From Solirubrobacterales bacterium (GTDB lineage Bacteria > Actinomycetota > Thermoleophilia > Solirubrobacterales > Solirubrobacteraceae), in contig JBBSJQ010000016.1 of the NCBI GenBank assembly GCA_038257095.1, forward strand, positions 30,417-94,416: a DNA stretch of 64,000 nt, read 5' to 3'. Below are positions 1-63,153 of this stretch, one piece after another. The position numbers and the translations under genes were made by a program. Below the pieces are notes generated by a model. It saw only the letters and a program-made list of their open reading frames with translations. It was not told the origin of the DNA and ran no database searches. Every line of letters begins with the position of its first letter. Position 1 is the stretch's first letter.

Positions 1-2169
1 GGCCGCGCGCGTCGTGTCGCCGGAGGCCGCAGAGACTCGGACACGCACGCCGTTCAGCACGGACATCGCCGCGAGTGGCTCAAGCGACCCCGGGCCCGCG
101 GCAGCCAGCACGTTGTAGTTCGCGCCGCCTGTCTCGTTCGCGCGCGTCCAGCCACCCGAGCCAGAGTGTCCCCACGCGTGCGGCAAGCAGACCGCCCCCG
201 GCATGACCTCGTCGGCGAGAGCCAGCGGCGCGACGACCGAGCCGGTCCGGGACGTGATCCGGACGTCGGCGCCTGCCGCCAGACCGAGCTGCTCCGCGTC
301 ATGCGGATGCATCAGGAGGCCAGGCGGAAGCTTCTTCGGGTTCAGCTTGGGGGAGTTGTGCATCCACGAGTTGATCGAGCGGAGCTCGCGGCGACCGAAC
401 AGGCGCATCGGGAACTCGGGGTCGTCGCGCTGCGTCCCAAGACGCGTCATCTCCGCAAGGATCTCCGGCGCCCCGAGATAGACCCTGCCGTCCTCGTGCA
501 CGACCTTCTTGCCGAGAACACCGGTCGGGACATGCGGAGCGAGTTGCACGCCGCGGGGCTGCTCGAGCAGCTTCTTGCGATTGAGCCCCTTCCGTCGGAG
601 CCCGAAGCGATCACCGTGGTCGCCGGTGCGAAGCATCACGTCGAACATGAACGCCGGAGTGACGCGCCGTCCGAGCCGTCCGAGCCGTCGGACTTGCGGC
701 GCACTCGACGGGACCAGGCCCACGCGAGCGCAGATGTCCCGGATCACCGTCCACTCCTCGCGCGCCTCGCCCCGCGGAGCGACGGCCGCTTCGGTCCACT
801 GCAGATACGGTCGGTACTGGTACTGGAGCACGAAGAGGTTCGCGTCCTCACGCTCGAGGAACGTCGTCGCGGGAAGGATGAAGTCGGCCTTGCTGTTGCT
901 CTCGTTGCGGTAGAGGTCCATCGCGACCATCAGGTCGAGTTCGCCGAGAGCGGCATCGAGCGCGCGGCTGTCCGGGACGCTCAGTGCCGGGTTCCCGGCC
1001 TGCACGAACAGCGCGCGTAGCTGCCCCTGCCCCGGCGTCCGGATCTCGTCAGCCATGATCCCGGCCGGCATGAGACCCAGCACGTCCGGATAGTCACCGA
1101 TGCGTGAGCGCTTCGCGCCGTACGTGTCGAGCCCCTGCCGCCGACCCGCCTCGAGCAGATCGATGGGCGGATCGGCGAACACCGCGCCGCCGGGCCGGTC
1201 GAGGTTCCCCGTGACCACGTTCAGCGCATCGAGGAGGAAGTTCACGAGCGTCGCAAAGCTGCCCAGACACGCACCGACCCGGCCATAGACCGCTGCGCTT
1301 GGGGCCCCGGCCAGATCTCGTGCGAGCGCCCGGATCGTGTCGGCCGAAACGCCCGATCCCTCGGCACACAGCTCGGGCGCGAAGGGTGCGACCGCGGCCC
1401 GCAAAGCTTCTGCGCCGCGGGCGGTCGCGACGGCGTCGGCGTCCTCGAGCTGCTCGTCGAAGATCACGTTGAGCATGCCGAGCAGCAGCCATGCATCACC
1501 GTCCGGACGCACGGCGACGTGCTCGTACCGGGCGGCCGTCTCCGTCCGCCGGGGATCGACGACGATGACCCGGCCCCCGCGGGCGACGACATCCTTGAGG
1601 TCATCCCGGATCAGGCCTCCTGCGACGAGTGACCCGTGTGAGACGAGAGGGTTTGCGCCGAGCATGAGCAACAGATCGGTCCGCGGGATGTCGGGAATCG
1701 GCACGCGGTAGCCGGTCCCGTAGAGGAAGTGCGAGGCCACGAACCTGCTGTTCGTATCCTGCGAGCCGGACGAGTAGACGTGCGGCGTGTCGAGCGCGTC
1801 GGCGAACCCCTTGATCCAGGCCAGCGACGCCCCCGAGAACGCGTTCGGGTTCCCGATGTAGACGCCGACGGAACGGTCACCGTGCTCCGCGCGGACCGCA
1901 GAGAGGCGGTCACCGATCTCGGCGATCGCCGCATCCCACGAGACCTGCTCGAACGTGTCGTCGGCGGTTCGCCGAAGTGGGTGGACAACCCGCTCCGGGT
2001 CGTTCTGCACCTGTGTCATCGCGATGCCTTTCGGGCACGCGAAGCCTGCGGTCACCGGGTGCTCGTCGTCGGGGCGAATCCGGGTGACGACCCCGTCCTC
2101 GACGGTGACCTTGATGCCGCAGAGCGCCTCGCAGATCCGGCAGTACGTGAGGCGGTCGGTTGGGGTCAT
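1..2169 (-). CDS. Molybdopterin-dependent oxidoreductase (formate/nitrate-reductase-like superfamily); 3' end lies beyond the window start
   Basis: Not in ORF track (no in-window stop). Manual minus-strand translation from ATG 2169 stays open for 723 codons to nt 1: MTPTDRLTYCRICEALCGIKV (N-terminal Cys cluster), GANPLVSHGS, FILPATTFLERED, VCLPHAWGH. Confidence 0.85.
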   Translation of the reverse strand, partial: MTPTDRLTYCRICEALCGIKVTVEDGVVTRIRPDDEHPVTAGFACPKGIAMTQVQNDPERVVHPLRRTADDTFEQVSWDAAIAEIGDRLSAVRAEHGDRSVGVYIGNPNAFSGASLAWIKGFADALDTPHVYSSGSQDTNSRFVASHFLYGTGYRVPIPDIPRTDLLLMLGANPLVSHGSLVAGGLIRDDLKDVVARGGRVIVVDPRRTETAARYEHVAVRPDGDAWLLLGMLNVIFDEQLEDADAVATARGAEALRAAVAPFAPELCAEGSGVSADTIRALARDLAGAPSAAVYGRVGACLGSFATLVNFLLDALNVVTGNLDRPGGAVFADPPIDLLEAGRRQGLDTYGAKRSRIGDYPDVLGLMPAGIMADEIRTPGQGQLRALFVQAGNPALSVPDSRALDAALGELDLMVAMDLYRNESNSKADFILPATTFLEREDANLFVLQYQYRPYLQWTEAAVAPRGEAREEWTVIRDICARVGLVPSSAPQVRRLGRLGRRVTPAFMFDVMLRTGDHGDRFGLRRKGLNRKKLLEQPRGVQLAPHVPTGVLGKKVVHEDGRVYLGAPEILAEMTRLGTQRDDPEFPMRLFGRRELRSINSWMHNSPKLNPKKLPPGLLMHPHDAEQLGLAAGADVRITSRTGSVVAPLALADEVMPGAVCLPHAWGHSGSGGWTRANETGGANYNVLAAAGPGSLEPLAAMSVLNGVRVRVSAASGDTTRAA

Positions 2170-2182
2170 TGTCAGACAGTAA
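2166..2182. promoter_or_regulatory. Operator candidate O1 TCATTGTCAGACAGTAA (TGTC-N-GACA palindrome family)
   Basis: AT-rich dyad in the divergent region. It contains the ATG (2169-2167) and a minus-strand TACTGT -10-like hexamer 6 nt upstream of that ATG. Confidence 0.5.
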
Positions 2183-2209
2183 CCCGGAAGAGTCTTTCCG
2201 TGGAAAATT

Positions 2210-2239
2210 TTGACACGCGTCGAATTCGACGGTTACAGT
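2210..2239 (+). promoter_or_regulatory. Sigma-70-type promoter of the FMO operon: TTGACA (2210-2215), 18-nt spacer, TACAGT (2234-2239), ATG 6 nt downstream (leaderless-type)
   Basis: Exact -35 consensus, TANNNT -10, no room for an SD before ATG 2246. Confidence 0.5.
2218..2231. promoter_or_regulatory. Perfect 14-bp palindrome CGTCGAATTCGACG in the promoter spacer; candidate operator of the operon-encoded TetR
   Basis: Read directly from sequence; sits between the -35 and -10 boxes. Confidence 0.4.
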
Positions 2240-2245
2240 CGATCG

Positions 2246-6685: not shown

Positions 6686-6949
6686 CTAGCGGTTCGCGAA
6701 GTACTCGGCGTTGGCCTGCTTGAACTGCGCCCACTCGTCCGGCAACTGGTCCTCGGCGAACGAGGCGTCGACCGGGCACGCCTCGACGCAGGCGTCGCAG
6801 TCGATGCACTCCTCAGGATCGATGTACAGCTGCTCGGCGGTGTCGTAGTCCGGTTCGTCCGGCGTCGGATGGATGCAGTCGACGGGACAGACCTCGACGC
6901 AGGAGTTGTCCTTCGTGCCGATGCACGGCGCTGCGATGACGTACGCCAC
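6686..6949 (-). CDS. 7Fe ferredoxin ([3Fe-4S][4Fe-4S], FdxA-like)
   Basis: VAYVIAAPCIGTKDNSCVEVCPVDCIHP and CIDCDACVEACP cluster motifs. Start set to GTG 6949 behind GAAAGGA; track ORF extends to 7024. Confidence 0.85.
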   Translation of the reverse strand: MAYVIAAPCIGTKDNSCVEVCPVDCIHPTPDEPDYDTAEQLYIDPEECIDCDACVEACPVDASFAEDQLPDEWAQFKQANAEYFANR

Positions 6950-6987
6950 GGGAGGGTCCTTTCGCTGGAAAACGCGGGACGCCCTGA

Positions 6988-7016
6988 GTGTACATCGTGT
7001 CCATACGTCAAGTATG
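6988..7016. repeat. Conserved 29-nt element copy 1: GTGTACATCGTGTCCATACGTCAAGTATG
   Basis: 25/29 identical to 42492-42520. Contains TGTACA and the dyad CATAC-N5-GTATG. Lies 38 nt upstream of the ferredoxin start. Confidence 0.5.
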
Positions 7017-7029
7017 GCTTTCAAGCCGC

Positions 7030-7779
7030 TTAGCGAGGAGCCATCCGAACGGCTCCGTCGAGCCGGACCACCTCGCCGTTCAGCATCTCGTTCTGGACGA
7101 TGTGCAGAACAAGGGCCGCGAACTCCTCCGGGCGTCCGAGCCGGCTCGGCTGCGGGATCGACGCCTCCACTGCGTCAAGCGCCGCCTTGGGGAGATCGGC
7201 GAGGAGAGGCGTGTCGAAGATCCCGGGCGCGACCGCCACGCAGCGGATGCCGTGCTCGCCTAGGTCGCGCGCGACCGGGAGGGTCATGCCGGCGATGGCC
7301 GCCTTGGACGTCGCGTACGCCACCTGCCCGACCTGACCGTCGTATGCCGCCACCGAAGCGGTGTTCACGATGACCCCGCGGCTGTCGCCGACGTACTCGA
7401 GGTTCGCCATCGCCGCAGCCGCAAGCCGCAGGACGTTGAAGGTCCCGACGACGTTGATCTCCAACACTCGAGCGAAATCGCCAAGGTCGTGGGGCACCCC
7501 GCGCCGGAGAACCCGTCCGGCTGTCGCGATGCCGGCGCAGTTGACGACCACGCGCAGCTGGCCGCGCGCGGAGGCGGTCTCGATCGCCGTAGCCACCTGC
7601 TGGCCATCGCGCACGTCGGCCGCGAAAAAGCCGAGTCCGGCGTCCCGGACGCGGGCCTCCGCCTCCGGGAGGTCGAGGACCACGACGTCGGCACCTCTGG
7701 CGGCGAGCGCGTGTGCGACCCCGGCACCAAGGCCGGACGCCCCTCCGGTGACCAGCGCTACGACTCCTGCGACGTCCAT
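7030..7779 (-). CDS. SDR, type-2 3-hydroxyacyl-CoA dehydrogenase (HSD10)-like
   Basis: VTGGASGLGAGVA, NCAGIA, YATSKAAIAGMT, C-terminal NGEVVRLDGAVRM typical of the family. Confidence 0.8.
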   Translation of the reverse strand: MDVAGVVALVTGGASGLGAGVAHALAARGADVVVLDLPEAEARVRDAGLGFFAADVRDGQQVATAIETASARGQLRVVVNCAGIATAGRVLRRGVPHDLGDFARVLEINVVGTFNVLRLAAAAMANLEYVGDSRGVIVNTASVAAYDGQVGQVAYATSKAAIAGMTLPVARDLGEHGIRCVAVAPGIFDTPLLADLPKAALDAVEASIPQPSRLGRPEEFAALVLHIVQNEMLNGEVVRLDGAVRMAPR

Positions 7780-7800
7780 TCGATCCCTTTCGCGGAACTT

Positions 7801-7842
7801 CGTCGACAGGCCCCGGGGAGGGAGACCCGGGGCCCGTCGACG
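7801..7842 (-). terminator. Long hairpin (16-bp arms, one mismatch, 10-nt loop) 3 nt after the flavoprotein stop
   Basis: CGTCGACAGGCCCCGG ggagggagac CCGGGGCCCGTCGACG. No U-tract, so it could equally be an intercistronic attenuator or stabiliser. Confidence 0.4.
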
Positions 7843-7845
7843 GTG

Positions 7846-9399
7846 TTAGGCCTGCGCGGGGACGTCGCTGAGGTCGCGACGCTCGCGCTGGTACGGCGGC
7901 AGGATCTCGCCGAGGTAGTCGTTACCAGTGATCTCGCTGACGGTGAGGAGCGACGTGAACGCCACGCCGTCCATGAACCCGCCGTAGTTCTTGACGGAAT
8001 CGCCCACGAAGTACAGGCCGTCGATGCCCGGGCACTTGGGGTCGAGCATCTGGTCCCACGCCTGGTCCGGTGTCGGAGCGACGTTCACGACGTACTCGAA
8101 GGCCGGGAACAGCGCCCACTCCAGCGCCTCCTCGAACCCCGGATGGTTCTCCTTGAAGAAGGTCATGATCGCCTGGCAGAGGGCGTCCAGTCCGCCGGAC
8201 TCCCGGAGCTGACGCAGGTGGTGGGTCTCGAGCCCGACCCAGCACTCGATGATCTCCTTGTCGGTGGGCGCCTTGCCCTCGACAAAGAGCGAGTGCGCCT
8301 CGTACCCGAGCACGACGCCGTCCGGCAGGTCCGGGTGGTCGACGGGGACCTTCGTCATGAGCATCCCCGGAATGTCGATCACGGACTTGGACAGTCCGAA
8401 GATCGGCGTCACCGCGCCGCTCGAGGTCAGCTTCCCGGTGCGTTTGACGAAGTCCTGCGGGAGCGCGTCGGCCGGGATGATCTGATCGACCAGCAATGGG
8501 AGCGGGATGTTGGACACGACCAGCGGGCACTCGATGCGCTCGATCTCGCCGGTCGGCGTGCGGACCTCCACGCCCTGGACGACGCCGTCCTCCACGAGGA
8601 TCTGGCGGACGCGCCAGCCCGTCCGGACTTCGCCGCCCTCTGCGGTGATGACGCTGGCGAGGTTGTGGGCCACCTGCATGAAGCTCTCGCCGCCCATTTG
8701 CCCGAGCGTGCCGTCGGCGAAGTGCAGGCCGGCGGCCATGGGCATACGAGTGATGAGCATGAACTCGCCGGCGCTGAGCTCCTTCGCCGAGTTCATGCCG
8801 ACGGTGAAGGCCCCGAGGATGTCGAAGAACTCGAGGACCTTGGGGTCCGACGTGCGCTCGACGAGGTAGTCGTGCAGCGACTCGCGGTAGTGCTCGAGCA
8901 CGGTGTCGAGCGGCAGCTTCAACATCCCGCCGAGGATGGCGCGCATCTCCGCGTACTCCTCGCGAGCCATCCACGGGAACGAGCCGCGAGTCATCTCGTG
9001 CAGCTTGCCGTCACTCCAGAACCCGCACGCCTTCAGCGGGATGATCTCGACGGGAACCTCCAGCGCATCGAGCACGTGCACCAGGCGTGACTGGGCGCCG
9101 TTGACGATGTCGTGCATCCCGAGCTCGAAGTTGTACCCGGCCAGCATGCCATCCTCGATGATCTTCTCGATGGACGGCTCGCTGTAGGCGAGCGACCCGG
9201 TGAACGACTCGAGGGGCCCGAGATAGTCCTCCACGGTCTCGATCTCGTCGCCCTTGTAGTGGTGGATGCGGCCACCGATTCGCGGGGTGCGCTCGAGCAC
9301 CAGGACGCGTTTGCCCTCCTTCTTCGCCAGGAGCGCACCGGCGCAGAGACCACCGACGCCGGCTCCGGCGACGATCACGTCGAACTCGTTGGTGCTCAT
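7846..9399 (-). CDS. FAD-dependent oxidoreductase, phytoene desaturase (CrtI)/amine-oxidase-like
   Basis: FDVIVAGAGVGGLCAGALLA...LVLERTPRIGGR dinucleotide fold. Confidence 0.75.
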   Translation of the reverse strand: MSTNEFDVIVAGAGVGGLCAGALLAKKEGKRVLVLERTPRIGGRIHHYKGDEIETVEDYLGPLESFTGSLAYSEPSIEKIIEDGMLAGYNFELGMHDIVNGAQSRLVHVLDALEVPVEIIPLKACGFWSDGKLHEMTRGSFPWMAREEYAEMRAILGGMLKLPLDTVLEHYRESLHDYLVERTSDPKVLEFFDILGAFTVGMNSAKELSAGEFMLITRMPMAAGLHFADGTLGQMGGESFMQVAHNLASVITAEGGEVRTGWRVRQILVEDGVVQGVEVRTPTGEIERIECPLVVSNIPLPLLVDQIIPADALPQDFVKRTGKLTSSGAVTPIFGLSKSVIDIPGMLMTKVPVDHPDLPDGVVLGYEAHSLFVEGKAPTDKEIIECWVGLETHHLRQLRESGGLDALCQAIMTFFKENHPGFEEALEWALFPAFEYVVNVAPTPDQAWDQMLDPKCPGIDGLYFVGDSVKNYGGFMDGVAFTSLLTVSEITGNDYLGEILPPYQRERRDLSDVPAQA

Positions 9400-9402
9400 C
9401 CG

Positions 9403-10524
9403 TCAGGCCTTTCCGTGGGCGATGTCGACGTGCGTGAAGGTCGGCTCGGCCGCGCCGGGGAGCAGGGCGGTGAGCTCGGAGGTGGGGAAGAACTGCAGGA
9501 AGCGGTCGTCGACGGTGCTGCGGTCGGCCAAGAGCTTCTCGAGCGTCACCGAGTTGTACTGCTCGGCCGCGGTCTCGAGCGTGTTCGCGTTGATGATTAC
9601 GTCCTGACGCCACTCCTCCGCCCACGCGGCGACCCCGGGGATCTCGCTGAGCTCGGGCGTGACGCACTCCGCCGCGATGGCGTTCTCGCTGCAGGTCCAG
9701 ATCCCGGTGTCCGTGTTCACGGCGAGGCTCTGGTTGCCCGCGGCGTGACCGGGCGTGCGGATGATCGCGACACCCGGACCGAGCAGGACGTCGCCGTCGA
9801 GCGCGACGACCCGGTCGCCCGGGACGTCGACGTAGGTCGCCGGCTGATACCACGGGATCTGGAACGGGTGCACATCGGCGAGGGCCTCCCACTCCTCCCG
9901 CTGGACCAGGAGCTTCGCGTTCGGGAAACGCGCGGCCACCGGCTCATCGGGCGAGATGTCGTCCTGCGCGACCGTGGTCCCGAGCCAGTGACGGACGTCC
10001 TGCGTGTGCAGATGATCGAACGCCAGGTAGTCGACGTCCTCAGGCTCGACGCCGATACGTGCCAGCACGTCCAGCGCGAGCTCGTGCGGCCGCGTGAGGC
10101 CGCGGAGCTCCTCGCGGGTCAGCCGCTTGGGCAGGTCGGCGAAGTACGGGGTGTTCGCGTCGAGTGGGCCGTCACTCGGGTTGAAGAGCAGGGTCTTCAA
10201 CCGACCGCCGTCCTCCCATCGGACGACCAGCATCCGGTTGCGAAGGGTCAGGAACGGCGCGCTCAAGGTCGACGCGCGCCAGAGCCCGAACTGCGTCGGG
10301 TACGGGACGTCGACGAGCGTGTACGCCCGCACGGACTGGGGGACGCCCGTCGCAGCGAACTCCTTGCGGAAGGCCGTCGCCAGCTCGGGGATGAGCCGCA
10401 GGCGAGCACCCGGGCCACCGGGCGCCTCGACGATCGGGCGGAGCGTGTCGATGACGGGGAACGCCGAGGCGTCGCCCGTCGGGGTGGGCAGCTGCAGCTG
10501 CGGGGTCTGGGGAATCGTGCTCAT
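9403..10524 (-). CDS. Metallo-beta-lactamase-fold protein (tentative), function unknown
   Basis: FDHLHTQDVRH (variant HxHxDH region) and IIRTPGHAAGNQSL. ATGA overlap with the P450 stop. Confidence 0.5.
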   Translation of the reverse strand: MSTIPQTPQLQLPTPTGDASAFPVIDTLRPIVEAPGGPGARLRLIPELATAFRKEFAATGVPQSVRAYTLVDVPYPTQFGLWRASTLSAPFLTLRNRMLVVRWEDGGRLKTLLFNPSDGPLDANTPYFADLPKRLTREELRGLTRPHELALDVLARIGVEPEDVDYLAFDHLHTQDVRHWLGTTVAQDDISPDEPVAARFPNAKLLVQREEWEALADVHPFQIPWYQPATYVDVPGDRVVALDGDVLLGPGVAIIRTPGHAAGNQSLAVNTDTGIWTCSENAIAAECVTPELSEIPGVAAWAEEWRQDVIINANTLETAAEQYNSVTLEKLLADRSTVDDRFLQFFPTSELTALLPGAAEPTFTHVDIAHGKA

Positions 10525-11753
10525 GGCTCTGGTGTGAACTCCACGTCAAGGGATCGCAGGCCCCGAGCGTTCATGCTCGGGACGTGCCTGGGCGCGTATC
10601 CGGGGGCGAGGTGCAGGTCGGGCAGGCGGGTGAGAAGCGCTTCGAACGCGCAGCGCGCCTCCAGCTTCGCGAGGATCGAACCGAGGCAGAAGTGGATGCC
10701 GTGGCCGAACCCGAGATGTTTGGCGGCGTTGTCCCGACGGATGTCCCACACGTCCGGGTTCTCGAACACGTTCTCATCCCGGTTGGCCGAGGCGATCGAC
10801 GTGTAGACGATCTTGTCCTCCGGGATGGTGGTCCCCGCGACCTCGCTCTCGACGAGCGACAGTCGCCGCTGGGTCATGATGGGAGAGGCGAACCGCATCG
10901 TCTCGTCCAGCATGTTGGGGATCAGCGAGAGGTCGGCCCGGACGGCCGCGTGGTCGTCCGGGCGCTCGAGTAGCAGACGCGTGCCGGAGCCGATGAGGTG
11001 GCCGGTCGTCTCCTGGCCCGCGACCATGAGGAGATGGACGATCGCGAGGACCTCCTCGACGGTCATCCGCTCCTCCCCTTCGACCGACGACGTCGCCAGC
11101 GCCGACAGCAGGTCGTCCACCGGGTTGTCGCGACGCGCCTGGATGCGCTCCGCGAAGTAGTGCTGGAACTCGACCCGGCTCTCGATGCATTGGACCTCGC
11201 GCTCGGGGCTGAGCACGCCGCTGAGGTGCTCCATCGCGTCGTCCGACCACTTCTTGAAGGTCTGGATGTTCTCCTTCTCGACTCCGAGGATCGACACCAT
11301 CAGGAGCAGCGGCAGCTTCGAGGAGAAGTCGGCGATGATGTCGGCCCGGCCGGCGGAGCCGAAGTCGTCGACCAGGTCGTCGGCGATGCCCTGGATGAGG
11401 CCCTCCCACTCCTGCACGCGGCGCGTGCTGAAGACCGCCGAGACGAGTTTGCGGTAGCGAGTGTGACCGGGCGGGTCGTTCGAGACCAGCGTGTTGGGCA
11501 CCCGGAAGCCGCGCATCATGACTTCCTTCATCGCTGGCGTCGGCTTCGGGCGCAGACCCGGGCCGCCGCGGTTGGAGTAGGTCTTCGGGTTCTTCAAGGC
11601 GGCGAGCACGTCCGCGTGCCGGGTGATCAGGTACGCGTCCTGCTTCTCCAGATAGCAGACCGGGACTTCACGCCGCGCGTAGGCGTAGAACTCGTACGGA
11701 TCCTCGAGGATCTCGGGAGCGAACGGGTCGGCGAACTTCGACGAGGTGGCCAT
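10521..11753 (-). CDS. Cytochrome P450
   Basis: Heme loop FGHGIHFCLG, I-helix MVAGQETT, ExxR (ETMR). Confidence 0.95.
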   Translation of the reverse strand: MATSSKFADPFAPEILEDPYEFYAYARREVPVCYLEKQDAYLITRHADVLAALKNPKTYSNRGGPGLRPKPTPAMKEVMMRGFRVPNTLVSNDPPGHTRYRKLVSAVFSTRRVQEWEGLIQGIADDLVDDFGSAGRADIIADFSSKLPLLLMVSILGVEKENIQTFKKWSDDAMEHLSGVLSPEREVQCIESRVEFQHYFAERIQARRDNPVDDLLSALATSSVEGEERMTVEEVLAIVHLLMVAGQETTGHLIGSGTRLLLERPDDHAAVRADLSLIPNMLDETMRFASPIMTQRRLSLVESEVAGTTIPEDKIVYTSIASANRDENVFENPDVWDIRRDNAAKHLGFGHGIHFCLGSILAKLEARCAFEALLTRLPDLHLAPGYAPRHVPSMNARGLRSLDVEFTPEP

Positions 11754-11775: not shown

Positions 11776-11792
11776 ATACTGTCGGACATTAT
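11776..11792. promoter_or_regulatory. Operator candidate O2 ATACTGTCGGACATTAT
   Basis: In the 62-nt ligase/P450 gap, about 22 nt upstream of the P450 ATG; implies an internal promoter. Confidence 0.6.
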
Positions 11793-11815: not shown

Positions 11816-13366
11816 CTACGAGATACGGGGCGCGGCGTGACGGGCGCGCAGCTCGCGCTTGAGTACCTTGCCGGTCGCCGTACGAGGCAGCTCGGGGATG
11901 TACTCGTAGCTCTGCGGGCACTTGTACTTCGCGATCTGCTCGAGGGCATGGGCGCGCAGTGCGTCGTCCGAGACCCCCTCGCCTTCGCGCAGCACGATGA
12001 CGGCGTGAATGGCCTCGCCCCACTGCTCGTGCGGCACGCCGATCACAGCCGCCTCGAGGACGGCGGGGTGGCTGGCCAGCGCCTCCTCGACCTCGCGGCT
12101 GACCACGTTGATCCCACCGGTGATGATGATGTCCTTCTTCCGATCGACGAGCGTGACGATGCGGTACTCGTCGACCACGGCGATGTCGCCGGTCTTCAGC
12201 CAGTCACCGACTCGGCAGGCCGCGGTGTCCTCCGGCTTGCGGAAGTATCCGGGCGAGACGGCCGGGCCCTTGAGCCACACCTCGCCCGTGGTCGTCCCGT
12301 CTCCCGGCACGTCCGTGCCGTCGTCTCCGACCACACGCACGTTCATGTTCGCCTGCGGCCGGCCGGTGGGAAGAAGGGTGCGATCAGCGACGAGCGAGTA
12401 CTGCTCCTGTCGGAGGATCAGACCGCTGGAGGCGGTCTCGGCCATGGCGTACATCGGGAAGACGACGGGTCCGATCGTCGCACGGACCTCCTCAACGAGC
12501 GCGGCGCTGACCGGCGCGCCGCCCATTGTCGCGTGCGTGAAGCTCGAGAGATCGAACTCGGCCCGGCGCGGATGGTCGAGGAGCATCCGCATCATGGTGG
12601 GCACCATGGTGCTGGCGGTCACCTTGAAGTCGTTGATGCAACGCAGGACGGAGAGCGGCTCGAAGGATGGGATGAGGACCATGCGGCCGCCCTTGAGGAA
12701 CGCTGCGGGAACGCCGCTGGCGGGCCCGCCGGAGTTGAAGAAGAGCGACAGCATCTGGAGGTAGGTGCTGTTCTCCGTGACCGGGTACTCCATCGCCCAG
12801 CCGTTGACCGAGGCGATCGCAGAGTCCTGCGTCATGATCGCGCCCTTGACCGTGCCGGTCGTCCCGCTGGTCGGACACAGCTGGTAGATCGCGTCGCCGG
12901 GGACCTCGATGCCCGGAGCAGACGGGTCCTCGGCGGCCATCAGCACCCCGAGGTCCAGCGGGGCGCCGTGCCCCTCACCCGTGCCGATGACGAACTCGAG
13001 CGTCGGCAGTTGGTCGGTGACGGCCGCACCGAGCTCGGCGTAGTCGGCGTGGACGAGTACGGCGCGGGGCTCAATGTAGGAGAGGTACGAGACCAGCTCC
13101 GACGCGGTCTGGCGGATGTTGACCGGCGCGCCGGCAACACCCGTCTTCGCACAGGCGAAGAAGAACTCGATGTACTCCGGGCAGTTCGGCGCCAGGATCG
13201 CGAGGCGGTCGCCGGGCTCCAGCCCGAGGGTCACGAGGGCTCGAGCGAAACGATTGCTCTGCTCGCTGAGCTCCTTCCAGGACAGGGTCGGGCCGTCGAG
13301 CTGCACGATGGCGTCTGCCTCCGGCTTGTACTCGGCGTTCCGTCCGGGAATGTCACGAATCAACAT
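11816..13366 (-). CDS. Acyl-CoA synthetase (AMP-forming)
   Basis: CPTSGTTGTVKGA AMP motif. Track ORF trimmed to ATG 13366 behind GGAGGAG. Confidence 0.9.
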   Translation of the reverse strand: MLIRDIPGRNAEYKPEADAIVQLDGPTLSWKELSEQSNRFARALVTLGLEPGDRLAILAPNCPEYIEFFFACAKTGVAGAPVNIRQTASELVSYLSYIEPRAVLVHADYAELGAAVTDQLPTLEFVIGTGEGHGAPLDLGVLMAAEDPSAPGIEVPGDAIYQLCPTSGTTGTVKGAIMTQDSAIASVNGWAMEYPVTENSTYLQMLSLFFNSGGPASGVPAAFLKGGRMVLIPSFEPLSVLRCINDFKVTASTMVPTMMRMLLDHPRRAEFDLSSFTHATMGGAPVSAALVEEVRATIGPVVFPMYAMAETASSGLILRQEQYSLVADRTLLPTGRPQANMNVRVVGDDGTDVPGDGTTTGEVWLKGPAVSPGYFRKPEDTAACRVGDWLKTGDIAVVDEYRIVTLVDRKKDIIITGGINVVSREVEEALASHPAVLEAAVIGVPHEQWGEAIHAVIVLREGEGVSDDALRAHALEQIAKYKCPQSYEYIPELPRTATGKVLKRELRARHAAPRIS

Positions 13367-13421
13367 CTGTCTCTCTCCTCCGTTCGAGCAACGTGCTCGC
13401 CCTCTTAGATGGTCCTTGCGG

Positions 13422-45200: not shown

Positions 45201-45205
45201 GTCGA

Positions 45206-46452: not shown

Positions 46453-46455
46453 TTA
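46439..46455. promoter_or_regulatory. Operator candidate O8 TTATTGTAGAACATTTA (minus strand AAATGTTCTACAATAA)
   Basis: In the mceF/SCP2 gap. Minus strand carries TTGACG-19 nt-TACAAT. Confidence 0.5.
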
Positions 46456-57918: not shown

Positions 57919-59121
57919 CTAGACCGACGTCGCAGAACGCCCCTGGACGGCGTGACGATCCATCCGTTTGAAACCGAGGGCGTCCTCCGCGAGCGCGACG
58001 CGCAGGACGTTCGCTGAGCCCTCCCCGGTGCGCCCGAGTAGCGCCAGGTTGAGGTAGCGGTTGATCGGATACTCGTCCGAGAAGCTGTAGGCACCGAAAA
58101 TCTCCACCACGGAGTTCGCTACGCGCAGCGCCACTTCGCCGAGGAAGTACTTAGCCATCGCGGCGGCCCGTGTGTCCGCGACCCCACGCGGATCGTCGAA
58201 CGAGGCCGCGGCGCGATAGAGGAGGAGCCGGCCGGCCTCGATCTCGGTGACCATGTCCGCGATGTTGTGCTGCAGCATCTGAAACTTCCCGATCGGGTGG
58301 CCGAACGCCTGACGCGACTTCGCGTACTCGATCCCATCGCGCCGCAGGACCTCTGCCACGGCCAGCGACTTCGTGCCGACCGCGAGCCGACCGTAGTCCA
58401 AGGCGTTCATCGCGATCTTGAAGCCGGAGCCCTCGTCACCGAGGAGCCGATCCGCAGGCAGGCGGACGTTCTCCAGCACGACCTCGCCTACCGGGATGAG
58501 AACTCCCCCGAGTGGCGTGATGCTGAGGGGGTTCACGCTCACCCCGGGATCCGTGTACTCGAGGATGAATGCGCTGACGCCCTGATGCCCGCTGGCGGTG
58601 TCCGTCTTCGCGAACACGACGCAGACGTCGGCAACCGGGGACATCGTGATCCAGAGCTTGGACCCGTTGAGGACCCACTCGTCCCCGTCCAGCTTCGCGG
58701 TCGTCCGCATGTTCCCGAGGACGTCCGATCCTCCGCCCGCCTCGGTGATGGCGATGCTGTTGATCGTGCGTCCGGCGATCAAGTCCGGCAGGTAGTCCGT
58801 CCGCTGCTGGGGCGACCCGAAGTTGAAGATCGCCATGGTCGCGGTCATGGCGTTCATGTTGAACGCGGTCACCAGGTCCGGCGAGCCCTTTCCGACCTCC
58901 TCCGCCGCGATGACCATGTTCAGGAAGCCGATGCTGCTCCCCCCGTACTCCTCGGGATAGACGGCGCCGAGCAGGCCCAGGTCGCCGAGCCGCTCGAAGA
59001 CATGGCGGGGGAAGTGCTTCTCACGCTCCCAGGTCGCGACGTGCGGCCGGAGCTCCTCACTGGCGAAGCGACGGGCGAGATCTCGTACCTGCGCGTTCTC
59101 GTCACTCAAGTTGAAATCCAT
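57919..59121 (-). CDS. Acyl-CoA dehydrogenase
   Basis: ITEAGGGSDV, QFGHPIGKFQ, GRTGEGSANV. Confidence 0.9.
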   Translation of the reverse strand: MDFNLSDENAQVRDLARRFASEELRPHVATWEREKHFPRHVFERLGDLGLLGAVYPEEYGGSSIGFLNMVIAAEEVGKGSPDLVTAFNMNAMTATMAIFNFGSPQQRTDYLPDLIAGRTINSIAITEAGGGSDVLGNMRTTAKLDGDEWVLNGSKLWITMSPVADVCVVFAKTDTASGHQGVSAFILEYTDPGVSVNPLSITPLGGVLIPVGEVVLENVRLPADRLLGDEGSGFKIAMNALDYGRLAVGTKSLAVAEVLRRDGIEYAKSRQAFGHPIGKFQMLQHNIADMVTEIEAGRLLLYRAAASFDDPRGVADTRAAAMAKYFLGEVALRVANSVVEIFGAYSFSDEYPINRYLNLALLGRTGEGSANVLRVALAEDALGFKRMDRHAVQGRSATSV

Positions 59122-59123
59122 GA

Positions 59124-59609
59124 TCAGGCCTCGTCCCCGACTCCCGGACGACAGCGGTACAGCAGCGAAGCCGTCATCTGCTGGACGACCTCCCCGCGCT
59201 GGTTGAGCATGCGGCGCTCGACCCTCACGACCCCCCGACCCGGCTTGCTCGTCAGACGCTTGTCCAGGACTTCGGACTCCATGTGCACGGTGTCCCCGTG
59301 CTTGACCGGCTTGAGCATCTTCCAGTCCGAGATGCCGAGAAGTGCGATCAAGGTCCCGTCGTTGACACCCGAGGCGTAGTTCAGGCCCGCGCAGAGTGCG
59401 TACACGAGCGGCCCGTGAGCGATGGGCTCCCCGAATGGCGTGTCCTTGCAGTACTCCCAGTTGGTGTGGACCTCGTTGAAGTCACCCGTGAGACAGGCGA
59501 AATTGACGATGTCGGTGCCGGTAATCGTCCGTGCCGGGGTCGAGAGGACCTCGCCGAGCGCGAGGTCCTCGTAGTAGCGCCCTCGGGGCGTCGGCGTCTT
59601 AACTTGCAT
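59124..59609 (-). CDS. MaoC-like (R)-specific enoyl-CoA hydratase (hotdog fold)
   Basis: FACLTGDFNEVHTNWEY hydratase motif. ATG 59609 abuts operator O9; the TTG 59627 extension (MLLSDI) is operator sequence. Confidence 0.85.
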   Translation of the reverse strand: MQVKTPTPRGRYYEDLALGEVLSTPARTITGTDIVNFACLTGDFNEVHTNWEYCKDTPFGEPIAHGPLVYALCAGLNYASGVNDGTLIALLGISDWKMLKPVKHGDTVHMESEVLDKRLTSKPGRGVVRVERRMLNQRGEVVQQMTASLLYRCRPGVGDEA

Positions 59610-59624
59610 AATGTCCGACAATAA
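59608..59624. promoter_or_regulatory. Operator candidate O9 ATAATGTCCGACAATAA
   Basis: In the 49-nt ALDH/MaoC gap. Minus strand reads TTGAGG-17 nt-TATTGT-8 nt-ATG. Confidence 0.65.
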
Positions 59625-59658: not shown

Positions 59659-61167
59659 TCAGCGGCTGTAGAACACCTTGACGAGCCGCGCCATCAGCTT
59701 CGAGCTCCACGGTTTGTACGGGTACATGTTGAGGTCGCGCTTGGGCACGAAGCGTGCGCTCATGATCGTCTGCGTCTTGCAGTACTTCCTGATACCGCCG
59801 GCTCCGTGGCGACTGCCGACCCCCGAGGACTTCCAGCCGCCCATGGGCGCTCCCATGGCGGCGTAGTTGAGCAGCGCGTCGTTGACGACCACGGCGCCCG
59901 CTTCGATCCGTCGGGCGATCTCCTCGCCCTTGCGAACGTCGCGCGTGAAGATCGAGGCCTGTAGCCCGTAGTTGGAGTCGTTCGCGAGGCGGATCGCCTC
60001 TTCGACGTCCGCGACCCGCATCACCGGGATCGTCGGCCCGAAGGTCTCGTCGCGCATGCACGTCATCTCGTGGGTCACCCCGGAGAGCACCGTAGGCTCG
60101 TAGAACCGCCCCGGTCCAGCACCCTTGCGTCCGCCGATCTCGACCTTCGCACCGCGGTCGACCGCGTCGCGGACATGGGCGTCGACGATGTCTATCTGCG
60201 GCTCGAAGGTCAGCGCCCCGACCTCGACGCTCCCCGGCCCGCCCGGTACGCCTTGGCGCACTCGGCGGACGTTGTCGACGAGCTTGCGGACGAACTCGTC
60301 GTGCACGGCAGACTCGACGTAGACGCGCTCGACGGAGATGCAGACTTGGCCGGAGTTGATGAGCCCGTAGTACGCGGCGGCGTTGGCCGCACGATCGAGA
60401 TCCGCATCCGCACACACGATCATCGGATCCTTGCCGCCGAGCTCGAGGCTGACCGGGGTCAGAGTGTCGGCGGCCCGCTTCATGACGGACCGCCCGGTCT
60501 TTGTCGACCCGGTGAACATGACGCAGTCGACGACATCGACAAGCGCGGCGCCCGTCTCGCCGTCGCCAGTGACGACCTCGAAGACCGCCGCCGGCGCACC
60601 TGCCGTCGACATCATCTCCGCTGTCAGCAACGCCGTCATCGGCGTCACCTCGGACGGCTTGAGCAGCACCGAGTTCCCGGCCATCAGGGCGGGGACGCAG
60701 TCGCAGAAGGCGTTGACGAGCGGATAGTTCCATGGGCCAATCACACCGACGAGCCCGACCGGCTCATGCCGGACGGACACCTTCTTGCCGACAGTGAAGG
60801 GAGAGAAGCCCTTGACCCGCTCGTCGCGCAGATAACCCTCGGCGTTGCGCGCCCAGAAGTGAAGACTTAGCGCGGCAATCGAGACCTCCATCTGCGCGTC
60901 GTCGTACGTCTTCCCGGTCTCGCTGCAGATTGTCGCGATCATCGTTGCATCGTTCGCGAGCAACCACCGGCGCGCACGGTCCATCACCTCTGCCCGGCCC
61001 GTGAAGCCGAGGTCCTGCCACTGACGCTGCGCGGCGCGCGAAGCGTCCGCGCGTCCGCGAACAGCAGCGGCACCCAGCACGGGGACGTTGCCAATAGTGA
61101 TTCCCCGTGCGGGATCCTCGACCGCGATGCTGCGCTCGTCGTCGACCGTTTTCAGGTCATGGGCCAT
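59659..61167 (-). CDS. NAD(P)-dependent aldehyde dehydrogenase
   Basis: GPWNYP, LELGGKDP, catalytic-Cys region INSGQVCISVERVYV. ATG 61167 behind AGGAGAGGAAG. The 780-aa track ORF upstream part is antisense to GntR. Confidence 0.9.
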   Translation of the reverse strand: MAHDLKTVDDERSIAVEDPARGITIGNVPVLGAAAVRGRADASRAAQRQWQDLGFTGRAEVMDRARRWLLANDATMIATICSETGKTYDDAQMEVSIAALSLHFWARNAEGYLRDERVKGFSPFTVGKKVSVRHEPVGLVGVIGPWNYPLVNAFCDCVPALMAGNSVLLKPSEVTPMTALLTAEMMSTAGAPAAVFEVVTGDGETGAALVDVVDCVMFTGSTKTGRSVMKRAADTLTPVSLELGGKDPMIVCADADLDRAANAAAYYGLINSGQVCISVERVYVESAVHDEFVRKLVDNVRRVRQGVPGGPGSVEVGALTFEPQIDIVDAHVRDAVDRGAKVEIGGRKGAGPGRFYEPTVLSGVTHEMTCMRDETFGPTIPVMRVADVEEAIRLANDSNYGLQASIFTRDVRKGEEIARRIEAGAVVVNDALLNYAAMGAPMGGWKSSGVGSRHGAGGIRKYCKTQTIMSARFVPKRDLNMYPYKPWSSKLMARLVKVFYSR

Positions 61168-61220: not shown

Positions 61221-61237
61221 AAACTGTCCAACATTCT
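61221..61237. promoter_or_regulatory. Operator candidate O10 AAACTGTCCAACATTCT
   Basis: In the ALDH/GntR2 divergent region; weaker match (GACA to AACA). Confidence 0.45.
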
Positions 61238-61265: not shown

Positions 61266-61406
61266 TTCGCCGACCTCGGCCCCGACGCCGAGCAGACCGT
61301 GCTTCCCGGGGTGGGCCACGTGCCGATGTCGGACGGCCCGGACCTGGTCGCGAGCACCATCCTCGACCGGACGACGCGCATGTTCGGGTACGGGATCTCG
61401 CCGTGA
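61266..61406 (+). pseudogene. C-terminal remnant (about 46 codons) of an alpha/beta hydrolase gene
   Basis: FADLGPDAEQTVLPGVGHVPMSDGPDLVASTILDRT matches the catalytic-His end of alpha/beta hydrolases. No N-terminal body. Its stop forms a GTGA overlap with the GntR2 start. Confidence 0.45.
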
Positions 61407-62137
61407 CCGAGACGCCGGTCACCCGCCGGCTCGACGGCTCCCTCCCGCTGCAGCCCGTGCAGCGTCCGCGTGCGCAGGTCGAGGAGCGGCTCCGCAAGAG
61501 CATCCTCACCGGCCGGTTCGCGACGGGCGAACGCCTTCCGAGCGAGGCGCAACTCGCCTCGAGCTTCGCTGTCAGCCGCACCACGGTCCGCGAAGCGCTG
61601 AGGGCGCTGGCGTCCGGCGGGCTCATCCACAAGGTGAGCGGCAAGGGCGGGGGAAGCTTCGTCAGCCTGGTCGACCACCACGCCCTCGGCGTGACCATCC
61701 ACGACTCGATGTCGGCGATCCTCCAGCTCGGACGGATCCAGGCCGACGAGGTCGGCGCCGTCCGCAGGCTGCTCGAGGTTCCCGCAGCTGAGTCGGCTGC
61801 CGAGCGTCGCACGGACGACCACGTCCGGCGGCTGAGGTCCCTGATCGAGCAGCAACGCGGACTACGCCTCGACGCTCCGGAGATCTCCGAGCTCGACAGT
61901 GCGTTCCACACGACCATCGCCGAGGCATCTGGCAATCGGCTCCTCAGCTCGTTCATCTCCGGCCTCCACGGACTTGCACAGCCGGCGCTCCGCGATCTCA
62001 CCGAGACGACCGGCCGGGCGACCTTCCGTCAGCACGTCACCATTGTGCAGGCGATCGAGCGTGCCGACCGCCAGGCAGCGGGGGAGGCCATGCTCGCCCA
62101 TCTCGGCTACATCGAGCATGTGTCGCTTCAGCGGTGA
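61403..62137 (+). CDS. GntR family regulator, FadR subfamily (FCD domain), paralog 2
   Basis: LPSEAQLASSFAVSRTTVREALRALASGGLIHKVSGKGGGSFV, near-identical HTH to 37898-38605. Confidence 0.9.
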   Translation: MTETPVTRRLDGSLPLQPVQRPRAQVEERLRKSILTGRFATGERLPSEAQLASSFAVSRTTVREALRALASGGLIHKVSGKGGGSFVSLVDHHALGVTIHDSMSAILQLGRIQADEVGAVRRLLEVPAAESAAERRTDDHVRRLRSLIEQQRGLRLDAPEISELDSAFHTTIAEASGNRLLSSFISGLHGLAQPALRDLTETTGRATFRQHVTIVQAIERADRQAAGEAMLAHLGYIEHVSLQR

Positions 62138-62174
62138 ACGCCCTACCGTACGGCGGCCCCGCGACACGGTATGC

Positions 62175-62191
62175 ATACTGTCGGACAGTTA
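62175..62191. promoter_or_regulatory. Operator candidate O11 ATACTGTCGGACAGTTA
   Basis: Between the GntR2 stop and SDR start. Confidence 0.6.
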
Positions 62192-62228
62192 GGTGTCCGG
62201 CCCGATCGAGATTTCCGGAAGGAACGCG

Positions 62229-63140
62229 ATGCCCCGTAGCAAGAACTCCTCGAGCGCGGTCGTCCCAGCGTCCTCGCTGAACCGTCACGTTGTCGCTGTC
62301 ACGGGTGGGGCGCGCGGGATCGGTTTCGCGATCGCCACGGAGCTCGTCGTCCACGGCGCACGGGTGGCCATCGGCGACCTCGACAGGGCGAGCGTAGAGC
62401 AGAGCGCGGCCTCGCTCGGCGAGGGAGCGATCGGCTTGCAACTCGACGTCGCGGACCACGCGTCCTTCGACCGATTCCTCGCGGCGGTCGAGTCCCAGCT
62501 CGGGCCGGTCACCGTCGTGATCAACAACGCGGGGATCATGCCGATCGGGCCGTGGCTCGACGAGTCGCCGGAGCTCGCGGAGAAGATTCTCGCGGTCAAC
62601 ATCCTCGGCGTGGTCCACGGGATGAAGCTCGCGCTCGCACGCATGCTTCCACGAGGGGCAGGACATGTGATCAATGTGGCGTCCATGGCCGGGAAGGCCC
62701 CAGTGCCCGGCGCCGTCACCTACGGCGCCTCGAAGGCCGCAGTCGTGTCGCTCGCTGAGAGCGCACGTGTCGAGTTCGCCGGCACCGGCCTCTTCTTCAC
62801 GACGGTGCTGCCATCGTTCACCAACACGGAGCTCGTCTCAGGCACGCGAGGCACGCGCTTCGTCGCTACCGTCTCCCCGCGGGACGTCGCGGTCGAGGTC
62901 GTCCGGGCGATCTGCGAGCCCCGCCCCGACGTCTGGGTCCCGCGGAGCATGGGCGCGATCCTTCGCGGACAGAGCCTGCTGGGAAGACGAGCGCGCGACG
63001 CGGCCAGCCGAGCACTCGGCGCGGATCGCACCTTCCTAGACGTCGATCGCGACGCGCGCGCGGCCTACGCCGCCCGGATCGACGCTGGTCAGACGCGGCC
63101 GGCGCTCTCGCCCGCGGGACCCACCCCGGACGAAGACTAA
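62229..63140 (+). CDS. Short-chain dehydrogenase/reductase
   Basis: VTGGARGIGFAIA, NNAG, YGASKAA. ATG 62229 preferred because GTG 62193 directly abuts O11. Confidence 0.85.
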   Translation: MPRSKNSSSAVVPASSLNRHVVAVTGGARGIGFAIATELVVHGARVAIGDLDRASVEQSAASLGEGAIGLQLDVADHASFDRFLAAVESQLGPVTVVINNAGIMPIGPWLDESPELAEKILAVNILGVVHGMKLALARMLPRGAGHVINVASMAGKAPVPGAVTYGASKAAVVSLAESARVEFAGTGLFFTTVLPSFTNTELVSGTRGTRFVATVSPRDVAVEVVRAICEPRPDVWVPRSMGAILRGQSLLGRRARDAASRALGADRTFLDVDRDARAAYAARIDAGQTRPALSPAGPTPDED

Positions 63141-63153
63141 TGTCCTACAATAA
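63137..63153. promoter_or_regulatory. Operator candidate O12 CTAATGTCCTACAATAA
   Basis: Overlaps the SDR stop and contains TACAAT (63146-63151) upstream of the acyl-CoA synthetase gene. Confidence 0.55.

Follow-up and report, generated by a model that had tools for sequence, protein, structure and literature searches.

A recurrent 17-bp palindrome in a lipid-catabolic island of a Solirubrobacterales bacterium as the probable operator of two paralogous GntR/FCD regulators

Introduction

A 64,000-nucleotide stretch of the genome of a Solirubrobacterales bacterium (assembly GCA_038257095.1, contig JBBSJQ010000016.1, positions 30,417 to 94,416), hereafter the window, encodes a lipid-catabolic island in which a 17-bp palindrome with the consensus ATAnTGTCsGACAnTAT recurs twelve times. 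On comparative evidence, this palindrome, hereafter the box, most likely serves as the operator of GntR1 and GntR2, two FadR-subfamily GntR/FCD paralogues whose genes lie in the same window. This pairing had been put forward in an earlier reading of the same DNA (the original prediction), and is supported by the paralogy of the two proteins, conservation of the box, the architecture of the operator, and the absence of homologues of the window's TetR proteins from the loci compared.

The mechanism proposed is a conventional one, that of a GntR/FadR-subfamily repressor acting on a palindromic operator, and is not a new mechanism. A regulator dimer would occupy each box, with one winged helix-turn-helix (wHTH) domain on each half-site. 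At around 14 transcription units the box would coincide with a promoter hexamer (-10 or -35), the likely transcription start, or the start codon. Binding would thus block RNA polymerase and keep ∼45 genes repressed, those of both regulators included (autoregulation). Release of the repressor would follow when an effector occupies the conserved Asp/His3 metal site in its FCD domain; this effector would most likely be a free carboxylic acid, either the substrate or an early intermediate of the pathway. The paralogues would share a common operator, and since their sensing domains differ more than their DNA-reading regions, they probably answer different ligands.

Sequence, Number, and Position of the Boxes

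The twelve 17-mers of the original prediction were all verified in the window, letters and coordinates alike, and are copies of one palindrome present far above shuffle expectation. The G+C content of the window is ∼68% throughout, and such AT-rich 17-mers thus stand out. Allowing up to three mismatches, ATANTGTCSGACANTAT was matched nine times, compared with 0.18 expected and a maximum of two in dinucleotide shuffles of the 64 kb, while WNTGTNNNACANW was matched exactly 11 times in the window against 0.44 expected. The bare 9-mer core TGTCNGACA with one mismatch showed no enrichment in the window (31 matches, 24.8 expected), and thus the signal resides in the core together with its AT-rich arms. 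At scores above 8 bits, a symmetrised position weight matrix (PWM) built from the sites returned exactly these 12 boxes in 64 kb and none else, with leave-one-out scores of 9.8–30.8 bits. The weakest box, at 32956 (15.7 bits, 9.8 leave-one-out), shares one base with the strong box at 32972, a tandem layout also found in relatives. Exact-protein look-ups yielded only short Logan contigs identical to the window, and the site count thus covers 64 kb. The regulon was judged real, and its 12 boxes form an unusually dense set.

Genes were called from codon-position G+C and open reading frames and annotated with Pfam, and their starts were refined by Shine-Dalgarno sequences, homologue alignments, and independent gene calls. 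On this independent map all 12 boxes are intergenic or lie on a start codon, as originally described, with 0–99 bp between a box and the nearest plausible start codon. The accompanying statement that boxes precede nearly every transcription unit is largely right, in that ∼14 units carry one, but several do not: the PWM found no box in the window for the LuxR-yrbE-mce operon, for the tandem TetR pair and the divergent thioesterase-enoyl-CoA hydratase (crotonase) unit, for a small thioesterase gene at ∼57.5 kb, or in an unannotated stretch at 36.7–37.9 kb.

Four of the boxes, numbered here O1–O12 by position, closely follow the stop codon of a co-directional gene upstream (O2, O5, O8, and O12), a placement that would suit RNA-level terminators or attenuator hairpins, or REP-like repeats (repetitive extragenic palindromes) with no regulatory role. 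Against this, the folding energies of the boxes with 6 nt of flank (0 to -9.5 kcal/mol) do not differ from those of mononucleotide shuffles, the arms are AT-rich, and a 1-nt centre cannot loop unless the innermost pairs open. A T-run follows none of the 12 boxes, and their flanks are not conserved, unlike those of a mobile repeat. A scan of the window returned no Rfam family and no tRNA. Given these energies and the lack of T-runs, a role as terminator or hairpin is effectively refuted, and the probability of any such RNA-level or repeat origin is practically negligible.

The GntR1 and GntR2 Regulators

Both FadR-subfamily GntR genes of the original prediction were confirmed as encoding a GntR wHTH and an FCD domain, and each stands beside a box. 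GntR1 (37898..38605, minus strand; 235 aa) is the second gene of a ligase-GntR1 operon headed by O7, and its paralogue GntR2 (61403..62137, plus strand; 244 aa) is preceded by O10. An operator before the regulator's own gene is common in the FadR subfamily, though not obligatory, and both genes have this arrangement. The wHTH domains match PF00392 above the Pfam cut-off (E = 1.8e-21 for GntR1 and 1e-20 for GntR2), and the FCD domains match PF07729 (E = 6.7e-26 and 3.2e-27 for the two proteins). The paralogues are 72% identical overall, with 87% identity in the wHTH domain and 64% in the FCD domain. A protein search returned one relative at 72% identity, from a metagenome, and many at ≤57% across the Actinobacteria, and a metagenome scan with GntR1 found one 50% relative and nothing closer. 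Regulator duplication is not unique to the window, as three other loci (L016, at 9130-10669, L023, and L024) have two copies each, and Nocardia rhamnosiphila carries two adjacent regulator paralogues with a box between them.

The recognition helix, VSR[TP]T[VI]REAL, hardly varies across an alignment of 37 family members. The AlphaFold model of GntR1 (predicted local distance difference test score, 86) consists of a wHTH of three helices and a two-strand wing, followed by a seven-helix bundle at residues 85-233. Its best fold matches in the PDB are all FCD regulators, namely NanR, a Streptococcus agalactiae GntR, CGL2915/LldR (template modelling score 0.72), Atu1419, DhdR, and FadR. Of the residues that would form the metal site, the three histidines (H162, H204, and H226) do not vary among the 37 members, and D158 is conserved in at least 90% of them; D158, H162, and H204 align with D146, H150, and H195 of DgoR.

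FCD sites of the metal type, the class of DgoR, LldR/CGL2915, NanR, TM0439, and Ps5454, coordinate a divalent metal that binds the carboxylate effector (PMC7674646). E. coli FadR lacks such a site and senses acyl-CoA (PMC7674646). At the residue level, GntR1 and GntR2 carry the Asp/Asn-x3-His…His…His signature of the metal type, and its retention favours a free carboxylic acid over an acyl-CoA as the probable effector. Confidence in this assignment is only moderate, because the Pseudomonas aeruginosa regulator AlkR pairs an almost identical operator with acyl-CoA sensing. The acyl-CoAs that had been suggested as ligands to try are not the best guess, as both proteins keep an Asp/His3 site that is absent from E. 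coli FadR.

Conservation of the Box Beside Regulator Homologues

The 37-member alignment was used to fetch 80 reference-genome loci, comprising 29 actinobacterial loci (42–54% identity) and 51 more distant ones (29–39% identity) that are mostly proteobacterial. By PWM, the actinobacterial loci contain 1.27 boxes/kb in the 250 bp upstream of the regulator versus 0.068/kb elsewhere, and the distant loci 0.78 versus 0.022/kb, an enrichment of 19- to 36-fold. The same signal emerges without the PWM: when all 4+4 palindromes with spacers of 0–3 nt were counted, TGTCNGACA was the top palindrome upstream of the regulators, occurring in 14 of 51 upstream windows of the distant set (6 of 3342 control windows) and in 4 of 29 of the actinobacterial set (18 of 1868 control windows). 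TTGTNNNACAA was present in 20 of 51 upstream windows of the distant set, compared with 13 of 3342 controls. The proteobacterial locus L054 has the same box before its regulator among DUF1326, DinB, and GcvT-like genes, with no β-oxidation genes nearby; the box thus follows the DNA-binding domain and not the pathway. Co-occurrence of the helix VSR[TP]T[VI]REAL with TGTCnGACA across phyla should aid operator prediction for uncharacterised FCD regulators.

Nine distant loci (L047, L054, L057, L064, L068, L069, L074, L080, and L081) have AAAATGTCAGACA(A/T)TTA just before their own regulator gene, frequently with a second, overlapping copy (aatgtatgac or aatgtctgac) immediately behind it. The regulators of these loci are distant proteobacterial FCD proteins, ∼30–35% identical, with the same recognition helix. 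At two further loci (L009 and L049, both on contig CAVWSY010000003.1 of one metagenome-assembled genome), thiolase, crotonase, and acyl-CoA dehydrogenase (ACAD) homologues appear as short adjacent tblastn fragments, which suggests frameshift errors in a long-read assembly; these loci were given little weight.

The comparative data also bear on whether the box is instead the operator of one of the four EthR-like TetR proteins encoded in the window: TetR_A (3606-4226), TetR_B (40484-41188, plus strand), and a tandem pair (41185-42508, minus strand). TetR repressors commonly bind palindromes of 15–21 bp in divergent promoters, O7 lies between the ligase-GntR1 operon and the divergent TetR_B gene, and O1 falls within the region upstream of the TetR_A operon. 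However, 81 loci, made up of the 80 regulator-homologue loci and a short contig that matches part of the window exactly, gave no homologue of any of the four at E ≤ 1e-4; many of these loci carry conserved boxes. Directly before GntR homologues the box is conserved in distant phyla as well. In addition, the divergent region of the tandem TetR pair is free of boxes, and the operon of TetR_A with a flavin-containing monooxygenase (FMO) has a promoter-like site of its own, with the different palindrome GTCGAATTCGAC in its spacer. A TetR assignment thus appears largely refuted by sequence comparison and is extremely unlikely.

The Conserved CoA-Transferase Operon and Its Promoters

The principal target of GntR1 and GntR2 would be an operon behind O3 (11816..21255, minus strand) that encodes, in order, a CaiB-type CoA-transferase, an ACAD, a short-chain dehydrogenase/reductase (SDR), two 3-hydroxyacyl-CoA dehydrogenases, a BadI/MenB-like crotonase, a small ACAD, a second CoA-transferase, and an acyl-CoA ligase. 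Annotation of the loci by tblastn with the window proteins revealed a counterpart of this operon beside the regulator in ∼20 actinobacterial loci from many genera. In relatives the order is CoA-transferase, crotonase, ACAD, SDR, two 3-hydroxyacyl-CoA dehydrogenases, and BadI/MenB-like crotonase, often followed by the second CoA-transferase and the ligase, and is conserved at L005, L010, L013-L016, and L020-L028. Regulator, box, and CoA-transferase operon are physically linked in ∼14 genera.

This linkage addresses the alternative that the box is bound by a factor encoded outside the window, or by a further FCD-type GntR whose recognition helix is the same, and that the local GntR proteins are aimed elsewhere. 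The window covers only 64 kb of the genome, Actinobacteria encode many FadR-subfamily regulators, with 45 in Mycobacterium smegmatis (PMC2018728), and the TGTCnGACA core is common to unrelated FCD regulators such as AlkR and LhgR. Both local regulators nevertheless have an upstream box (O7 and O10), as do their homologues elsewhere, and the three-way linkage of regulator gene, box, and operon makes a regulator encoded elsewhere unlikely.

Conservation at orthologous promoters had been set beforehand as a check on the regulon, and the box was found directly upstream of the first CoA-transferase orthologue in 13 actinobacterial loci as well as in L088, a metagenomic locus that is the closest relative (regulator 72% identical). 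In an alignment of these 14 promoters only the 17-bp box is conserved: information reaches 1.4–2.0 bits at TGTC/GACA, and the flanks carry almost none. Eight of the 14 have a TTGACA 17 nt ahead of the right arm CATTAT, such that the box fills the spacer and covers the -10 element, and in 4 of the 14 TTGACA is created by the right arm. Such shifting of an operator between -10 and -35 positions is expected of a repressor site laid over ordinary promoters.

The same overlap could be taken to mean that the box is mainly a promoter module, a -10/-35 element for a dedicated sigma factor that is sometimes fused to a leaderless start codon. The half-site TAnTGT fits the actinobacterial -10 pattern TANNNT, and in relatives the right arm serves as CATTAT (-10) or TTGACA (-35). 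In three genes of the window the likely ATG falls inside the box or at its edge: the molybdopterin oxidoreductase (2169), the CoA-transferase (21255 or 21243), and the MaoC hydratase (59609). At these ATGs the half-site sits 6–8 nt upstream, approximately the spacing of the -10 hexamer of a leaderless mRNA, and operator, -10 element, and start codon would fit within ∼20 bp. The conserved unit, however, is a perfect dyad with the highest information at TGTC/GACA in both halves, unlike asymmetric promoter hexamers, and its position over the -10 element in some genomes and the -35 element in others fits an operator on an ordinary promoter. The box also lies 50–165 bp from start codons at O6, O10, and O12, and travels with one regulator family across phyla. 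A role as a promoter module is thus very unlikely.

Beyond the CoA-transferase promoter, L088 has boxes in the divergent region between CoA-transferase and GntR genes and before a DUF35-thiolase unit, as in the window, and a 57%-identical relative has boxes at the regulator start and before DUF35-thiolase genes. The loci of Mycolicibacterium pulveris and Streptomyces luomodiensis have boxes at divergent β-oxidation promoters. From these comparisons, the core regulon would consist of the regulator, the CoA-transferase operon, and the DUF35/thiolase genes. The MaoC/ACAD and thiolase units are only occasionally linked to a box in relatives, and the cytochrome P450, oxidoreductase, epoxide hydrolase, aldehyde dehydrogenase, SDR, ligase, and MceG-like units look like organism-specific additions. 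In this organism the regulon would thereby take in P450/ferredoxin, epoxide hydrolase, aldehyde dehydrogenase, and DUF35/thiolase genes, along with a MaoC hydratase, acyl-CoA ligases, and a MceG-like ATPase unit.

Several points weigh against the assignment of the box to GntR1 and GntR2, or limit it. The link between regulator and box rests on co-occurrence in loci that were retrieved via the regulator, whose presence is thus given by construction, and between 6 and 9 of the 29 actinobacterial loci have no box of ≥14 bits near the regulator or the CoA-transferase operon. Either paralogue may bind a given site, and a literature search found no report of binding, expression, or transcription starts for this organism or clade. 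In a relaxed scan, promoter-like hexamers overlap the box in only 6 of 17 site-gene pairs, with two more lying clear of it, and a scan with the strict sigma-70 consensus found no promoter in 32.8–35.6 kb, around O4–O6. At O2, O4/O5, O8, O11, and O12, which lie in gaps of 40–60 bp between co-directional genes, a promoter is assumed. Finally, AlkR is released from its near-identical operator by acyl-CoA and not by a free acid (PMC12042122), which leaves the effector class uncertain.

Comparison With Known Operators and Regulators

The core of the box contains GT-CsG-AC, in keeping with the GT-N(x)-AC architecture of GntR-family operators to which it had been ascribed; the GTCnGAC core is common to the operators of FadR, LldR, AlkR, and LhgR. 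Among the closest described systems is AlkR, for which footprinting defined the operator ATTGTCAGACAAT and which is released by C16/C18-CoA (PMC12042122). This operator is nearly identical to the box core, A(A/T/C)TGTC(S)GACA(A/T/G)T, and AlkR likewise acts as a dimer on a palindrome placed over promoter hexamers, represses genes for catabolism of hydrophobic substrates, and has extra weaker sites at other catabolic genes. However, AlkR comes from another phylum, has a small regulon, and belongs to the VanR group, with six C-terminal helices compared with seven in the GntR1 model. Its release by C16/C18 acyl-CoA contrasts with the metal site typical of carboxylate sensors in GntR1 and GntR2, and its PDB entry is not among the sequence matches of GntR1 or the GntR1 wHTH, so it is not a close relative. 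The operator of Pseudomonas putida LhgR is TTGTCTGACAA.

E. coli FadR and LldR recognise aaCTGGTCnGACC(T/A)Gtt (PMC9329746) and AAnTGGTCnGACCAnTT (PMC10272880), respectively. As with the box, these are 17-bp dyads with a central GTCnGAC and AT-rich ends, located over promoters or transcription starts of fatty-acid or organic-acid catabolism genes and bound by proteins of a common fold, but position ±4 is T/A in the box and G/C in the FadR and LldR operators. Against the NCBIfam equivalog cut-offs, the regulator scores 41.6 versus 189 bits for FadR (NF003444) and 104.6 versus 311 bits for LldR. An identity with E. coli-type FadR was rejected on its sub-cut-off score and on the His triad, which is replaced by Phe149, Tyr193, and Tyr215 in FadR. 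Orthology to any of the named regulators NanR, LldR, PdhR, and FadR was rejected as well, all of their NCBIfam scores being far below cut-offs.

Among actinobacterial regulators, Mce1R (VanR-type) and Mce2R (FadR-type) are also GntR/FCD proteins linked to mce loci and acyl-CoA ligase genes. In contrast to their arrangement, no box precedes the LuxR-yrbE-mce core in the window, only the accessory MceG-like ATPase unit is boxed, and GntR1 and GntR2 sit 5–16 kb from the mce genes. The intergenic region upstream of LuxR-yrbEA (∼57200-57450), where the operator of an mce-operon GntR repressor would lie, has no box, and none occurs anywhere in 46.5–57.9 kb. Mce2R itself was considered and set aside, since the operator predicted for its M. 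smegmatis orthologue is TGGTAAGACCA and not the box (PMC2018728).

KstR, KstR2, and Mce3R also control dense local regulons of β-oxidation-like and mce genes through a repressor and many operator copies, but belong to the TetR family and have different motifs. The KstR and KstR2 consensus, as given in the original prediction, is presumably a different palindrome from the box. The original prediction judged the box distinct from both, and this holds in that it co-occurs with GntR homologues and never with homologues of the TetR proteins of the window. Mce3R, considered for the tandem TetR genes and the epoxide hydrolase, binds 25-bp sites that are not palindromic and was rejected for that reason. 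A genome with a pair of paralogous GntR-type regulators has a precedent in Corynebacterium glutamicum, whose GntR1 and GntR2 are reported to be functionally equivalent at the same targets and differ from the present pair in governing gluconate catabolism (PMC2230225).

Literature matches to exact core strings were mostly primers, while longer variants led to AlkR and LhgR and degenerate ones to FadR and LldR. The original statement that the regulon could not be matched to a described one therefore stands for the regulon, for which no described counterpart was found, but not for the type of box, which was already known. The box belongs to a well-described operator class; the regulator clade and gene set appear undescribed, and limited searching of the open-access literature found no description of either the clade or the regulon.

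Putative Pathway and Significance

All NCBIfam matches of the core operon are far below cut-offs, and none gives an equivalog-level annotation. The best sub-threshold matches are to succinate-glutarate CoA-transferase, cyclohexane-1-carbonyl-CoA dehydrogenase/AcrC, and MenB/BadI, and the BadI-like enzyme hints at ring opening of an alicyclic acyl-CoA. Taken together with the Baeyer-Villiger monooxygenase (BVMO), P450, epoxide hydrolase, and Mce transporter of the island, these matches prompt the speculation that the pathway degrades a hydrophobic acid, either alicyclic or branched. Searching the literature for GntR together with cyclohexanecarboxylate and naphthenic acids returned nothing specific, and no description of the pathway.

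A broader proposal, which we put forward tentatively and regard as conceivable though on balance doubtful, is that the regulator clade, box, and linked operon form a widespread actinobacterial pathway-plus-switch that has so far gone undescribed, possibly for carboxylic acids that are alicyclic or branched (isoprenoid-like). In the present organism a compact module of operator, promoter, and start codon would have spread to ∼14 units around the mce transporter and so enlarged the regulon, and two paralogous sensors on one operator set would integrate two ligands. The assignment of the box to GntR1 and GntR2 would group ∼45 genes of the island, including the Mce accessory ATPase, into one co-regulated set, and the ligands of the two named sensor proteins would reveal the substrate of the pathway. 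Because Amycolatopsis, Nocardia, Pseudonocardia, Streptomyces, Aeromicrobium, and Mycolicibacterium conserve the regulator, the box, and the core operon and offer cultivable model organisms, the proposal is testable in the laboratory, and in complete genomes the box can serve to map the regulon.

Organisation of the Island

The island encodes many acyl-CoA dehydrogenases, crotonases, 3-hydroxyacyl-CoA dehydrogenases, thiolases, and DUF35/thiolase-like pairs, together with family III CoA-transferases and three acyl-CoA ligases. Its oxidative genes include a P450 with ferredoxin, an FMO-type BVMO, an epoxide hydrolase, and an aldehyde dehydrogenase, and it further contains a complete yrbEAB-mceA-F operon behind a LuxR-type gene, four EthR-like TetR genes, and the two GntR+FCD genes.

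At the left end of the window, O1 (2166..2182, TCATTGTCAGACAGTAA) overlaps the ATG at 2169 of the molybdopterin oxidoreductase gene (1..2169, minus strand), whose 3′ end lies beyond the window start, and its centre is ∼72 bp upstream of the divergent FMO/BVMO ATG at 2246. As a correction to the original prediction, the FMO/BVMO-TetR operon has its own promoter-like site ∼70 bp away, at 2210-2248, and O1 is better assigned to the molybdopterin oxidoreductase, which it most likely serves. The FMO/BVMO site, TTGACA (2210)-18-TACAGT (2234)-6-in-frame ATG (2246), is near consensus and implies a leaderless mRNA. Its spacer contains the perfect 12-bp palindrome GTCGAATTCGAC (2219-2230), which differs from the box, shows no repeats above chance elsewhere in the window, and is a candidate operator of the co-transcribed EthR-like TetR (3606-4226), in an arrangement reminiscent of EthA/EthR.

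O2 (11776..11792, ATACTGTCGGACATTAT) lies 22 bp upstream of the P450 start and 23 bp past the stop codon of the upstream ligase. Behind it, a minus-strand unit (6686..11753) encodes the P450, an unknown protein, an FAD oxidoreductase, an SDR, and a ferredoxin; one frame in this operon, 9403-10524 (373 aa), has no Pfam match. O3 (21242..21258, ATAATGTTCGACATTAG) overlaps two features: the start codon (21255 or 21243) of the CoA-transferase gene, first in the conserved core operon, and a TTGACC-16-GACATT promoter-like site of the divergent ACAD gene. This ACAD gene and an enoyl-CoA hydratase gene form a plus-strand unit at 21321..23310.

The tandem boxes O4 (32956..32972, ATACTGTGCGACAACCA), the weakest of the set and identical in L001, and O5 (32972..32988, ATAATGTCGGACAGTAT) lie 22 bp upstream of the DUF35 start and 38 bp upstream of the DUF35-thiolase operon, respectively, and O5 has orthologous positions in L088, L089, and L007. 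The unit behind them (23361..32933, minus strand) encodes DUF35 and thiolase-like pairs, two crotonases, a 3-hydroxyacyl-CoA dehydrogenase, a kinase, a SnoaL protein, and a hydrolase. O6 (35425..35441, GTATTGTCCGACAGTAT) occupies the divergent region between an epoxide hydrolase-ACAD unit (32999..35325, minus strand) and a thiolase gene (35513..36727, plus strand); L014 also has a thiolase beside a box. The ∼1.1-kb stretch between this thiolase and GntR1, 36655-37782, may be coding and has no Pfam match.

O7 (40343..40359, AGAATGTCCGACAATAA) lies 31 bp upstream of the likely ATG at 40311 of the ligase-GntR1 operon, whose first gene encodes the acyl-CoA ligase (38677..40311, minus strand); the divergent TetR_B gene is 125 bp away. 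In the interval from O7 to the TetR_B start, ACTGTCCGGACA (40403-40414) forms a box-like TGTCC-GGACA dyad with a 2-nt centre that does not score with the box PWM. Three EthR_C-type TetR genes are clustered here at 40484-42508, one on the plus strand (40484-41188) and an abutting minus-strand pair (∼41185-41800 and 41804-42508) that may be two genes or a frameshifted double TetR of the Mce3R type; none of the three has a GntR box in its own divergent region.

O8 (46439..46455, TTATTGTAGAACATTTA), which has a degenerate core and is overlapped by a TTGACG-19-TACAAT site, follows mceF and lies upstream of a minus-strand unit (44475..46392) for an unknown protein, a MceG-like ABC ATPase, and a hydrolase. 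The small first gene of this unit, 45997-46392, has no Pfam match. O9 (59608..59624, ATAATGTCCGACAATAA) overlaps the likely MaoC start ATG at 59609 and a TTGAGG-17-TATTGT site, ahead of the MaoC hydratase and ACAD genes (57919..59609, minus strand). O10 (61221..61237, AAACTGTCCAACATTCT) is in the divergent region between the aldehyde dehydrogenase gene (59659..61167, minus strand; ATG at 61167) and GntR2, which starts at 61403 on the plus strand. O11 (62175..62191, ATACTGTCGGACAGTTA) lies 37 bp upstream of the SDR start at 62229 (62229..63140, plus strand), and O12 (63137..63153, CTAATGTCCTACAATAA) overlaps the stop codon of this SDR gene and precedes by 51 bp the start at 63205 of an acyl-CoA ligase gene that is cut by the window end (63205..64000, plus strand).

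Within the mce region, the LuxR-type (GerE) gene, probably the first of the mce operon, has its end at 56360, with yrbEA directly downstream, while a small 4HBT thioesterase gene lies at ∼57450-57895 on the strand opposite LuxR-mce. The gap between them, ∼57200-57450, has a low G+C bias, carries no box, and looks like a promoter region shared by the LuxR and thioesterase genes.

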